A stretch of 63,870 nt of DNA from Candidatus Moraniibacteriota bacterium. GTDB lineage: Bacteria; Patescibacteriota; Minisyncoccia; Moranbacterales; UBA2206. Where the stretch lies: assembly GCA_026396175.1 (NCBI GenBank), contig JAPLXG010000014.1, positions 1 through 63,870 of the forward strand. Reading direction: 5' to 3'. The position numbers and the translations under genes are program-made. The notes below the pieces were generated by a model. It worked only from the letters and a program-made list of their open reading frames with translations, was not told the origin of the DNA and did no database searches. This document shows positions 38,227 through 40,542 of this stretch, piece by piece. Within the stretch, counting starts at the first letter, position 1. Every line of letters begins with the position of its first letter.

Positions 38227-39123
38227 CTATTCACCCCACAGCTTCGTGCTGAGATATTTTTCTCCGCGATCGGGAAAAATAACAACCATCCGGCCAGTGA
38301 TATCTCGCTTGGCCAGCTCTGTCGCCGCGAGCATCGCCGCGCCACTGGACATCCCCGCAAAAATCCCCTCGACTTTCGCAATTTTTCTATCCATTGCGAA
38401 GGCTTTTTCACTTTCAATGTTCACAAACTCATCAATTTGCTTTTCATCATAAATCGCCGGCACAATCGCTTCGTCCATATTTTTGAGGCCTTGGATATAG
38501 TGACCTTTTTCCGGATAGGCACAAACAATTTTGATGTTCGAATCATATTCTTTCAGATATTTTCCCACACCCATAATCGTGCCGGAAGTACCAATGGAAG
38601 AAACAAAATAATCAATTTTTCCGCCCATACCTTCCCAAATTTCCTTGGCGGTTGTTTCATAGTGCGCGATTTTGTTGTAAACATTGGAAAATTGATCCGG
38701 CATAAAATATTTTTCCGGATTATTTTTGACCAGTTCTCTGGCTTTCACAATCGCGCCGTCCGTGCCTTTGTCCGCGTCAGTCAAGGTTATTTTTGCTCCA
38801 AAGGCCTCCAACATTTTTCTTCTTTCCATCGAAACCGCCGCGCTCATCACGATTTCTACGTTGTAACCCAAAACCGCTCCGATCATCGCGATACCGATGC
38901 CGGTATTCCCTGATGTTGGTTCGATAATAATTTTTTCTTTTGTCAGCTCCCCATTTTCAATCCCATGCCCCAGCATTTTCAAAGCCACACGATCCTTGAT
39001 GCTCCCGCCCGGATTTTGTCCTTCCAATTTAGCAAAAATTTCCAGATTTGCATTCGGATTGAGTTTGTTGATTTTGACCAATGGCGTATTGCCAATTGTC
39101 GCAAGTATATTTTGATAAATCAT
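38227..39123 (-). CDS. cysK: Cysteine synthase (O-acetylserine sulfhydrylase), PLP-dependent
   Basis: IGNTPLV, NPGGSIKDR, SSGNTG-like TSGNTG and GTSGT motifs. The track ORF was trimmed to MIYQNIL. Confidence 0.92.
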   Translation of the reverse strand: MIYQNILATIGNTPLVKINKLNPNANLEIFAKLEGQNPGGSIKDRVALKMLGHGIENGELTKEKIIIEPTSGNTGIGIAMIGAVLGYNVEIVMSAAVSMERRKMLEAFGAKITLTDADKGTDGAIVKARELVKNNPEKYFMPDQFSNVYNKIAHYETTAKEIWEGMGGKIDYFVSSIGTSGTIMGVGKYLKEYDSNIKIVCAYPEKGHYIQGLKNMDEAIVPAIYDEKQIDEFVNIESEKAFAMDRKIAKVEGIFAGMSSGAAMLAATELAKRDITGRMVVIFPDRGEKYLSTKLWGE

Positions 39124-39167
39124 AGATTTATTTTTAATTATTATTGAGAAAATAGTCTCGCCAATTT

Positions 39168-39207
39168 GTATATTCGTACATTCGTACAAATTCGTAATTC
39201 GTAGAGA
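39168..39207. repeat. Half copy of family F element
   Basis: TATTCGTACATTCGTACAAATTCGTAATTCGTAGAGAG matches only the right arm of family F. Confidence 0.6.
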
Positions 39208-39212
39208 GCAAC

Positions 39213-39237
39213 AAAAAATCCCGATTATTTCGGGAGC
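39213..39237 (-). terminator. Attenuator terminator between the Cys leader ORF and cysK
   Basis: Minus-strand RNA UCCCGA-AAUAA-UCGGGA followed by UUUUUUG. Its 5' arm overlaps UGCUCCC, which can pair with GGGAGCA inside the leader ORF. Confidence 0.55.
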
Positions 39238-39266
39238 AATCTCACTATCTTTTTTCTTTCAAAGCA

Positions 39267-39362
39267 TCAACAGAAAAAAGCTGCTCCCTGCGCAATCAGG
39301 TGGTTACAGCAACAACAAAAGATGCTAGCTAGCTGAAAATTTTGGACTTTGGACTTTTTCAT
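39267..39362 (-). CDS. Candidate cysteine leader peptide (31 aa, four consecutive Cys codons)
   Basis: Hand-translated as MKKSKVQNFQLASIFCCCCNHLIAQGAAFFC*. Located between a promoter and a terminator upstream of cysK. Confidence 0.5.
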   Translation of the reverse strand: MKKSKVQNFQLASIFCCCCNHLIAQGAAFFC

Positions 39363-39386
39363 ATTTTACCAGTTTAATCTAAGGTT

Positions 39387-39415
39387 ACTATAGCCTAGGA
39401 TTTAAAATTAAGCAA
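39387..39415 (-). promoter_or_regulatory. Sigma70-like promoter of the leader-cysK unit (TTGCTT-17-TATAGT)
   Basis: Read on the minus strand, about 25-30 nt upstream of the leader ATG. Confidence 0.55.
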
Positions 39416-39425
39416 ACGCGCCATA

Positions 39426-39454
39426 TTGCTTATTCCTTTAATTAACTATATAAT
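39426..39454 (+). promoter_or_regulatory. Sigma70-like promoter of prfA (TTGCTT-17-TATAAT)
   Basis: Perfect -10 box and 17-nt spacer, 24 nt upstream of the prfA ATG. Confidence 0.6.
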
Positions 39455-39477
39455 GCTAGAAGTAACAAAACAGCATT

Positions 39478-40542
39478 ATGCGCGAACAGATTGAACAAAT
39501 CAAAGCCGAATATGCCCAAATTGCCCAAGAACTCAGCAATCCTGATGTGGTTTTTGATACGCAAAAAATGACCGCGCTCTCCAAAAAACAAGCGGAGTTG
39601 AACGAAGTGATGCGCAAAATTGAAGAATTAGAACTGTTGGAAAAAAATATGCGGGAAAACGCCGAAATTGTGAACAGTGAAGAAGACGGCGAAATGAAGC
39701 AGATGGCGATGGAGGAAAATATCAATTTGGCCGAGAAGAAAGTTATTTTGGAAAAAGAATTGGAAACACTGCTTTTACCCAAAGATCCTAATGACGCCAA
39801 AAATGTCATCGTGGAAATCCGCGCGGGCGCCGGAGGTGATGAATCAGCTCTGTTTGCCGCCAGTCTTTTTCGGATGTATTCGCACTATGCCGAAAAAAAT
39901 CGTTGGCAAGTTGCTCTGCTCAATTCCCACCAAAACGGCGTGGGCGGTTTCAAAGAAGTTGTTTTTGAAATCAATGGCGCGGGAGTCTATGGTAAGATGA
40001 AATACGAATCCGGCGTGCACCGCGTCCAACGCATCCCGGAGACAGAAAAAAATGGCCGCATCCACACTTCCACCGCGACTGTGGCAGTTCTGCCTGAAGC
40101 CGAGGAGTTTGATTTCAAAATTGAAGAAAAAGATATCCGTATCGACACTTTTTGTTCTTCCGGCCCGGGCGGACAGTCCGTCAACACCACCAAATCCGCC
40201 GTGCGCATCACGCACATTCCGACCGGAGTGATTGTTTCTTGCCAAGATGAAAAATCGCAACTGAAAAACAAAGATAAGGCCATGAAAGTGCTGCGTTCCC
40301 GTCTTTTGCAAACAGAAGAAGAAAAACGCAGTAAAGAACTGGGTGATCAAAGAAAATCTCAAATTGGTACCGGCGATCGCAGTGAAAAAATTCGCACCTA
40401 TAATTTTCCCCAGGATCGCATCACTGATCATCGCATCAAACAAAATTGGAGCAACATTGGCGGAATTCTTGAAGGAAACATCGAACCAATTATCACTGCG
40501 CTGCAAGAAGAAGATATCAAAATGAAACTAGCTACTCTCTAA
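39478..40542 (+). CDS. prfA: Peptide chain release factor 1
   Basis: 354 aa. GGQ ([11 protein letters not shown]), RF1-type P-x-T tripeptide (PET) and [14 protein letters not shown]. Followed by prmC. Confidence 0.95.

Follow-up and report, generated by a model that had tools for sequence, protein, structure and literature searches.

How does a bacterium from a lineage with tiny genomes, few regulators, and very few transcription factors match a biosynthetic gene to the supply of its product? Patescibacteria are such a lineage, and to our knowledge almost nothing is known about metabolic control in them. The question is raised here by a 63,870-bp stretch of DNA from Candidatus Moraniibacteriota bacterium (contig JAPLXG010000014.1; hereafter the window, to whose full length all coordinates refer), in which an open reading frame (ORF) of 31 codons, four of them consecutive Cys codons, sits 143 nt 5' of a cysteine synthase gene that matches TIGR01136 (cysK/M). 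The intergenic region that holds it separates cysK/M (39123..38227, minus strand) from the divergent prfA (39478..40542, plus strand), and all leader elements are read on the minus strand (Table 1). The Cys run is the sole (TGY)>=3 run on both strands of the window, and a fifth Cys codon (39272..39270) ends the ORF, directly before the TGA stop (39269..39267). We think it probable that this leader is a ribosome-mediated leader-peptide transcription attenuator that makes cysK/M transcription depend on how much charged tRNA-Cys is available. It would be a classic mechanism applied to cysteine and to cysK/M, in a phylum for which it is so far unpublished.

In the mechanism that we propose, transcription would start at TTGCTT-17-TATAGT and a ribosome would begin the 31-codon leader. 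With Cys-tRNA scarce, the ribosome would stall at 39317..39306, the four Cys codons, with a footprint that ends short of a GGGAGCA segment further along the ORF. That segment, extended by the CUUUUUUCU/AGAAAAAAG hairpin, would pair with UGCUCCC once this has been transcribed; the terminator 5' arm would then be occupied, no terminator would form, and RNA polymerase would read into cysK/M. With Cys-tRNA plentiful, the ribosome would reach the last Cys codon and the UGA and so cover the antiterminator 5' strand, the UCCCGA/UCGGGA hairpin with its U6 tract would form, and transcription would stop 89 nt before cysK/M. Three points are inferred: translation of the 31 codons, the ability of the hairpin to stop the RNA polymerase of this organism, and the role of cysteine as the signal.

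Mutually Exclusive Structures in the Leader

A preliminary description of the region, made from the sequence, had proposed trp/his-type logic for cysteine, and it placed all of the elements correctly. Its promoter coordinates are borne out on rereading the sequence, as is its ORF of 31 residues (39362..39267) with four consecutive Cys codons and a Cys as the last codon. For the terminator, it had the hairpin, the U6 tract, and the spacing of about 90 nt right (the cysK/M ATG at 39123 lies 89 nt beyond the end of the U-tract), but it began the hairpin at 39237, 2 nt too far 5' of the actual start at 39235. The complementarity that it pointed out between GGGAGCA and UGCUCCC, the latter overlapping the terminator 5' arm, was confirmed. 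GGGAGCA begins 17 nt past the Cys run and ends 12 nt ahead of the stop codon, and because UGCUCCC overlaps the terminator 5' arm, antiterminator and terminator are mutually exclusive. The antiterminator pairing stands as first described, but its extent was underestimated, as it also includes an inner hairpin, CUUUUUUCU:AGAAAAAAG, and in this window an outer helix, CCUGAUUG:UAAUCGGG. The last Cys codon and the TGA lie at or just past the end of the 5' arm of the inner hairpin, whose loop contains the stop. The outer helix also sequesters the terminator 3' arm; it is not clearly kept in relatives and was left out of the family design.

The minimum free energy (MFE) and centroid structures of the window leader are both the long antiterminator, and ribosome-free RNA takes up the antiterminator form at -39.5 kcal/mol. 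The duplex of the terminator 5' arm with the stretch of the ORF beyond the Cys run has an energy of -14.6 kcal/mol, whereas shuffles of that stretch average -7.1 kcal/mol (p = 0.006), and it is stronger than the terminator hairpin (-7.9 kcal/mol). The ribosome was modeled as a 30-nt mask and the RNA refolded, both at full length and on a transcript cut before the terminator 3' arm, the state that matters kinetically. A mask placed at the first or the last codon of the Cys run leaves the window leader with eight antiterminator pairs and no terminator pairs; when it is placed at the stop codon instead, antiterminator pairs fall to zero and all six of the six terminator pairs form. The masked folds of the cut transcript are the same as those at full length. 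The folding check put forward in the preliminary description thus finds the two structures exclusive, and the masked folds give the switch that it had predicted.

The 1:2 protector or pause helix is not evident in the folds of the window leader. This helix is typical of trp-type leaders, though not every leader-peptide attenuator needs it. Without it, untranslated window RNA would default to the antiterminator, and termination would therefore depend on translation of the leader.

Recurrence of the Leader Upstream of cysK/M

Loci from relatives were collected by CysK similarity in genome and metagenome contigs, together with an exact look-up of 12 CysK relatives. A Cys-run leader ORF of like geometry lies 5' of cysK/M in at least 17 further loci (18 including the window), and the taxon-labeled members of the 17 are Patescibacteria. 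The close relatives, with CysK proteins 83%–93% identical to that of the window, are L001, L082, L083, L160, and L161; they share the divergent prfA wherever enough upstream sequence is present, and the leader peptides of this close group follow the pattern ...F(C/G)CC(C/S)(N/D)H(L/A)I(A/V)(Q/S)G(A/V)AFFC, with the stop directly after the final Cys. The more distant members are L119, L011, L052 (identical to L156), L146, and L164 to L171. Their leader ORFs, for example MQQKQERTMQAKCCCLEKICSRNFCC and MDTKIVYNMESNCCCALMKSRACCCI (each followed by a stop), share little with that of the window save the Cys runs and terminal Cys codons. The six leader peptides of the close group, including the window's, gave no match in an exact look-up against a collection of 15 billion proteins, and since they are absent from it, they are unannotated.

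The layout is kept. All 18 family members have a run of two to four Cys codons; the stop follows the end of the first run by 27–42 nt (mostly 33–39), the terminator lies 25–39 nt past the stop codon, and the hairpin is followed by at least five U in 7 nt, again in 18 of 18 loci. The terminator stem is kept and its loop varies in L001, L082, L083, L160, L161, and L119. In L083 and L160 the terminator is only 25–35 nt from the cysK ATG, and because this leaves little or no room for a promoter, cysK in these two loci must be read through the terminator. Conservation of the Cys-run ORF and of the alternative pairings had been named as a check in the preliminary description; both recur in the 17 other cysK/M loci, with the ORF segment tracking the terminator arm.

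Some of the distant members carry more of the classical apparatus than the window does. L164 and L168 have an extra 1:2 helix directly after the Cys run, and such a helix is also present in L011 and L167. In the free RNA of L164 and L168 no antiterminator forms, and a ribosome stalled at the Cys codons brings about 9–12 antiterminator pairs; as modeled, these two have the full four-region trp design.

In addition to the regulatory run, a second Cys codon or cluster stands at or beside the end of the ORF. Peptides ending in ..FFC, ..NFCC, ..SFCCC, ..WCC, and ..CCCI before the stop illustrate it, and it is kept across otherwise unrelated classes, having been seen in the window, L001, L082, L083, L160, L161, L164–L168, L170, L171, L052, L011, and L119. 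A ribosome held at the terminal Cys would mask the antiterminator strand and so favor termination, a sign opposite to that of the first run. One idea is that these codons keep the ribosome parked while the terminator is still being made.

Two further loci deserve mention. L146 (1285-1478), on a metagenome contig with a CysK 64% identical to the window's, shows the whole of the putative attenuator: its leader has 42 codons and includes CCC, the antiterminator is of 9 bp, and the terminator is of 12 bp. In L022 (~2780-2960), labeled Bdellovibrionales, a CC-containing small ORF is followed by a long hairpin and a U-tract 5' of cysK. Judging from L146 and L022, the design may extend beyond Patescibacteria. 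Cys-codon runs in the Pedobacter, Mucilaginibacter, and Clostridia loci that we examined were rejected as leaders, as they are out-of-frame stretches inside coding regions.

Signs of Selection on the RNA Pairings

The terminator stems fall into five classes: UCCCGA; GCUCUCGG / CUCUCG; UCUCGAG; GCCUCUGAUU; and GGCCC. At each locus the ORF segment that follows the Cys run complements the 5' arm of its own terminator (p <= 0.014 against shuffles, per locus). The mean energy of these own pairings is -14.1 kcal/mol, compared with -8.1 for cross-class pairings, and the own pairing is the best in 11 of 12 representatives. When one representative of each of the five classes is taken, the true assignment of ORF segments to terminators ranks first of 120 permutations (-69.3 kcal/mol, with the next best at -62.1).

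Within the seven closest sequences the core GGGAG:CUCCC is unvarying. The pair adjoining it is C:G in the window and L083 and U:A in L082 and L160, the residue encoded there (codon -5) being Ala or Val. The inner hairpin is paired in 85.7% of cells across seven relatives. The codons GCT TTT TTC TGT are unchanged at every position in six relatives, and the third position of GGA never varies. Counting back from the stop in six sequences, codons -12 to -8 all show synonymous variation, while codons -7, -6, and -4 to -1, which make up antiterminator strands, have no third-position change. In these sequences the constraint is at the nucleotide level and not at the level of the peptide.

This pattern bears on the proposal that the ORF encodes, as a gene in its own right, a small Cys-rich product such as a metal-binding peptide or the precursor of a ribosomally synthesized and post-translationally modified peptide (RiPP), with a terminator of its own, cysK/M being transcribed from TTGGCG-16-AATAAT (39164..39137). 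Such a promoter-like site does lie past the terminator, and CCCCNHLIAQGAAFFC, the C-terminal half of the peptide, shows good conservation among the close relatives. However, third codon positions are invariant exactly where the RNA is predicted to pair and variable just upstream, and the sole variable residue of the C-terminal stretch, the Ala/Val, changes along with its RNA pairing partner. Across classes the peptides have only Cys runs and spacing in common, whereas the RNA complementarity is always kept. The short distance from terminator to cysK ATG in L083 and L160 is insufficient for a promoter, the adjacent genes (prfA and a response regulator) include neither a maturase nor a transporter, and the association is specific to cysK/M in differing genomic neighborhoods. 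A separate peptide gene would seem quite improbable on this evidence, and the attenuator accounts for the ORF better.

Observations at Odds with Attenuation

Several observations weigh against an attenuator. The first concern the elements themselves. The terminator is short (6 bp, -7.9 kcal/mol), and the fold z-score of the whole leader is only -0.82, which is unremarkable. The -35 TTGCTT is too weak for a consensus promoter scan, and the promoter-like TTGGCG-16-AATAAT 3' of the terminator offers a possible bypass in this window. No Shine-Dalgarno (SD) sequence is recognizable before the leader ATG, where the upstream DNA (39363..39386) is A/T-rich. Because cysK (39124..39150 upstream) and prfA (39450..39477) lack an SD as well, and have similarly A/T-rich upstream regions, its absence does not single the leader out; the starts of leader, cysK/M, and prfA together suggest SD-independent initiation in this organism. 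The simple attenuation model also leaves the conserved Cys codon or codons at the ORF end unexplained. Three metatranscriptome runs from the same lake samples contained no contig over the leader or cysK.

Others come from the relatives. L162 and L163, with CysK proteins 81% and 76% identical to the window's, have no leader upstream; among Moranbacteria-type loci found by the protein look-up and with enough upstream DNA, the leader is present in 9 of 11. In L011, L146, L164, and L168 the full-length equilibrium fold keeps the terminator under any mask, and the antiterminator appears only on a transcript cut before the 3' arm; because their full-length equilibrium folds do not flip, these four need a kinetic argument. 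Formal covariation among the seven closest sequences is not significant, with 93 of 500 shuffles attaining its score. This follows from the invariance of the core pairs; pair 47-97 (C:G / U:A) is the sole clear two-sided change. It is for this reason that the cross-class complementarity was used instead.

Another explanation is a chance small ORF beside a chance hairpin in an AT-rich intergenic region. Terminator-like hairpins are indeed no commoner here than in shuffles (2 sites in 2 kb, with 2.4 expected), so that the hairpin by itself is ordinary, and the fold z-score points the same way. Because hairpin frequency and z-score are ordinary, the significance of the leader rests on the combination of elements and on their conservation in relatives. 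The Cys run, however, is unique in the window, and the layout is found in 17 other loci with matched sequence changes; chance is effectively refuted by these comparative data, and we give it almost no weight.

Comparison with Known Systems

The classical attenuators are the trpL, hisL, leuL, thrL, pheL, and ilv leaders of E. coli and Salmonella. Like these, the family described here has a short ORF in which codons for the amino acid made by the pathway stand in a run, an antiterminator 5' strand between the regulatory codons and the stop, and an overlapping intrinsic terminator with a U-tract just before the biosynthetic gene; L164, L168, L011, and L167 share the 1:2 helix as well. The differences are the amino acid (cysteine), the gene (cysK/M), the phylum (Patescibacteria), and the lack of an SD. 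Unlike the classical leaders, the window also has no evident 1:2 helix, so that untranslated RNA would read through, and it has the additional Cys codon, in other members a cluster, at the ORF end. In Firmicutes, cysteine genes are controlled by T-box (tRNA-Cys) and S-box/S-adenosylmethionine (SAM) riboswitches, in which no ribosome or leader ORF is involved. These resemble the present leader in the choice between terminator and antiterminator before cysteine or sulfur genes, and the T-box also reads tRNA charging, but the T-box and SAM riboswitch models have no match in the leader, even at E <= 10. An Rfam scan of the leader found no family at threshold. Its Trp_leader match (RF00513; 18.7 bits against a gathering score of 41, E = 0.55, 39211..39304) falls below threshold and is a matter of similar architecture only, with no membership in the sequence family. 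At gathering score, the whole window yields one tRNA only.

Attenuators with Cys codons are already known elsewhere, before cysS in Rhodobacterales and as polycysteine small ORFs (sORFs) in mycobacteria. The uORFC-8-2 motif, 5' of cysS in Rhodobacterales, is a predicted ribosome-mediated attenuator from a survey by the Breaker laboratory (PMC8632094). Like the present leader, it has tandem Cys codons in an upstream ORF (uORF) followed by a terminator stem and a run of U, and has been proposed to sense charged tRNA-Cys; unlike it, it belongs to a cysteinyl-tRNA synthetase gene in alphaproteobacteria and has two Cys codons inside the first stem (PMC8632094). No sequence relationship between the motif and the window leader was seen, and there was no Rfam hit. 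Leader ORFs with Cys codons have also been predicted in Actinobacteria, without terminators (PMC1262725), and the leaderless polycysteine sORFs of mycobacteria, the "Cys ribulon," have been shown to be translational attenuators that unmask a downstream ribosome-binding site (bioRxiv 10.1101/834739). In these, as proposed here, Cys-codon runs in a small upstream ORF serve to sense cysteine for genes of cysteine metabolism. The mycobacterial sORFs are leaderless and have no terminator, whereas the window leader has a hairpin and U-tract, a competing antiterminator, and a predicted 5' untranslated region (UTR) of about 18 nt. It is not of the Cys-ribulon type, as 24 nt separate its predicted -10 box from the ATG, the leader includes a terminator, and the cysK start is outside the predicted pairings.

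The mycobacterial precedent is one reason to consider that the ORF senses cysteine but acts through something other than intrinsic termination, such as Rho-dependent termination, the processing or stability of the mRNA, or the initiation of cysK translation, with the hairpin and U-tract as an incidental feature or a stabilizer. The small size of the terminator would fit this, as would the archaeal-labeled look-alikes described below, which lack a hairpin terminator and may sequester an SD or start codon. Yet every one of the 18 bacterial members has its U-rich tract directly after a hairpin, the ORF complement is always aimed at the 5' arm of that hairpin and not at the cysK start region, and in the window the cysK ATG, 89 nt downstream, is reached by no predicted pairing. 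An output of this kind is unlikely in our estimation, and transcription attenuation remains the preferred reading.

Full-text searches found no paper on leader-peptide attenuation in Patescibacteria (the candidate phyla radiation, CPR), and none on this attenuator at cysK, in agreement with the statement in the preliminary description that no attenuators were described in this lineage. If the reading is right, a conserved ribosome-based cysteine sensor would mean that Patescibacteria use classic attenuation at the RNA level, and it would imply that expression of cysK/M, and hence cysteine made by the cells themselves, is of importance to these presumed symbionts. The five stem classes with one geometry would offer natural variation for the study of how attenuators evolve and of attenuation in SD-poor mRNAs. 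The understanding of attenuation itself would be unchanged.

The cysK/M Locus

The cysteine synthase is identified by its TIGR01136 score. It is 88%–93% identical to proteins in Moraniibacteriota/Parcubacteria records, which places the organism in Patescibacteria, and records of Moranbacteria, Moraniibacteriota, and Parcubacteria list its relatives as cysteine synthase B or as cysteine synthase family protein. Because the upstream prfA is divergent, the intergenic region must supply the promoter, and for the same reason the terminator hairpin is not the terminator of another gene. The form TTGC(T/C)T-17-TATA(G/T)T is found at the same place in L001, L082, and L160, where the surrounding bases vary. 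Release factor 1, the prfA product, reads PET where the PxT tripeptide is usually PAT or PVT, and its GGQ is flanked by S and T.

Table 1. Predicted elements of the cysteine leader and the adjoining gene, in window coordinates
Feature	Coordinates	Strand	Basis or remark
Promoter-like site: -35 TTGCTT (39415..39410), 17-nt spacer, -10 TATAGT (39392..39387)	39387..39415	-	Sequence reading
Leader ORF, 31 codons + TGA, MKKSKVQNFQLASIFCCCCNHLIAQGAAFFC	39267..39362	-	ORF reading; homologues in L001, L082, L083, L160, L161
Run of four Cys codons TGT TGT TGC TGT, codons 16-19, proposed stall site	39306..39317	-	Sequence reading
Outer helix, this window only: CCUGAUUG (39300..39293) : UAAUCGGG (39227..39220)	39220..39300	-	MFE and centroid fold
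Antiterminator 5' strand GGGAGCA (codons GGA GCA)	39282..39288	-	Complementary to UGCUCCC
Antiterminator inner hairpin CUUUUUUCU (39280..39272) : AGAAAAAAG (39257..39249)	39249..39280	-	MFE fold
Antiterminator 3' strand UGCUCCC	39232..39238	-	Shares four bases (UCCC) with terminator 5' arm
Putative intrinsic terminator UCCCGA-AAUAA-UCGGGA (39235..39219, -7.9 kcal/mol) + U6 (39218..39213)	39213..39235	-	Hairpin scan, energy
Cysteine synthase, CysK/CysM family, 298 aa	38227..39123	-	TIGR01136 cysKM, 367 bits (cut-off 344)

Archaeal-Labeled Look-Alikes and Dispersed Repeats

Short uORFs that end in a Cys run lie 28–96 nt 5' of cysK/M in L021 (2881-2916), L108, L051 (2901-2930), L048/L153, L098, L117, and L121, on contigs labeled Woesearchaeota or Methanosarcinales and on unlabeled metagenome contigs. 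Examples are MAIKIKSCCCC, MTKEMCCCC, ..SYSCFCCC, MNLLKQSQNHCCCC, and ..ECCCLEFCCC, each followed directly by a stop. In six of eight, a TATA-like box (TTTAAATA, TTTATAC, or ATAAATA) stands at -29..-32 of the uORF ATG, a position that suggests that these uORFs are leaderless. They are followed by oligo-T tracts, not by hairpin terminators, and L098 and L117 have an AUCAUCU capable of pairing with the SD or start region. They may represent an archaeal cysteine-sensing uORF, their archaeal identity being that of the labels on metagenome-assembled genomes (MAGs); if so, amino-acid-sensing uORF attenuators would be met in Archaea for the first time. A broader possibility, which we think less likely than not, is that the window element is one of a widespread, unpublished cysteine "ribulon" of Patescibacteria (first Cys run as sensor, antiterminator strand, and ribosome-parking terminal Cys), with counterparts in Archaea.

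Between the terminator and cysK, the window contains a block (39207..39164, minus strand) of TACGAAT-like heptamers, GTTGCTCTCTAC(G/T)AATTAC(G/T)AAT..GTACGAATATAC.AAT, forming a module of about 45 nt. The module recurs at at least four other intergenic sites in the window, usually as inverted pairs 40–50 nt apart just 5' of gene starts (701-752/794-825, 7721-7753/7811-7845, 10782-10817/10864-10901, and 53305-53357/53400-53425). It is also found past the terminator in L082 and, in part, in L081, L161, and L169; in L011 it lies upstream of the promoter. In metagenome run X7, 14 contig pieces match the heptamer block only, and those with listed flanks are in different contexts; the sole matches in the metatranscriptome runs are likewise to this repeat block. 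As a dispersed repeat that is absent from L083 and L160, the block was rejected as a part of the switch, and its absence from these two loci marks it as an insertion. It may be an element like repetitive extragenic palindromes (REP) or miniature inverted-repeat transposable elements (MITE), or an array of protein-binding sites. The closest genome relative, L001, has a different insert between terminator and cysK (2835-2975), a palindrome of about 140 nt that runs from GTCATTCTGAGCG to CGCTCAGGATGAC.

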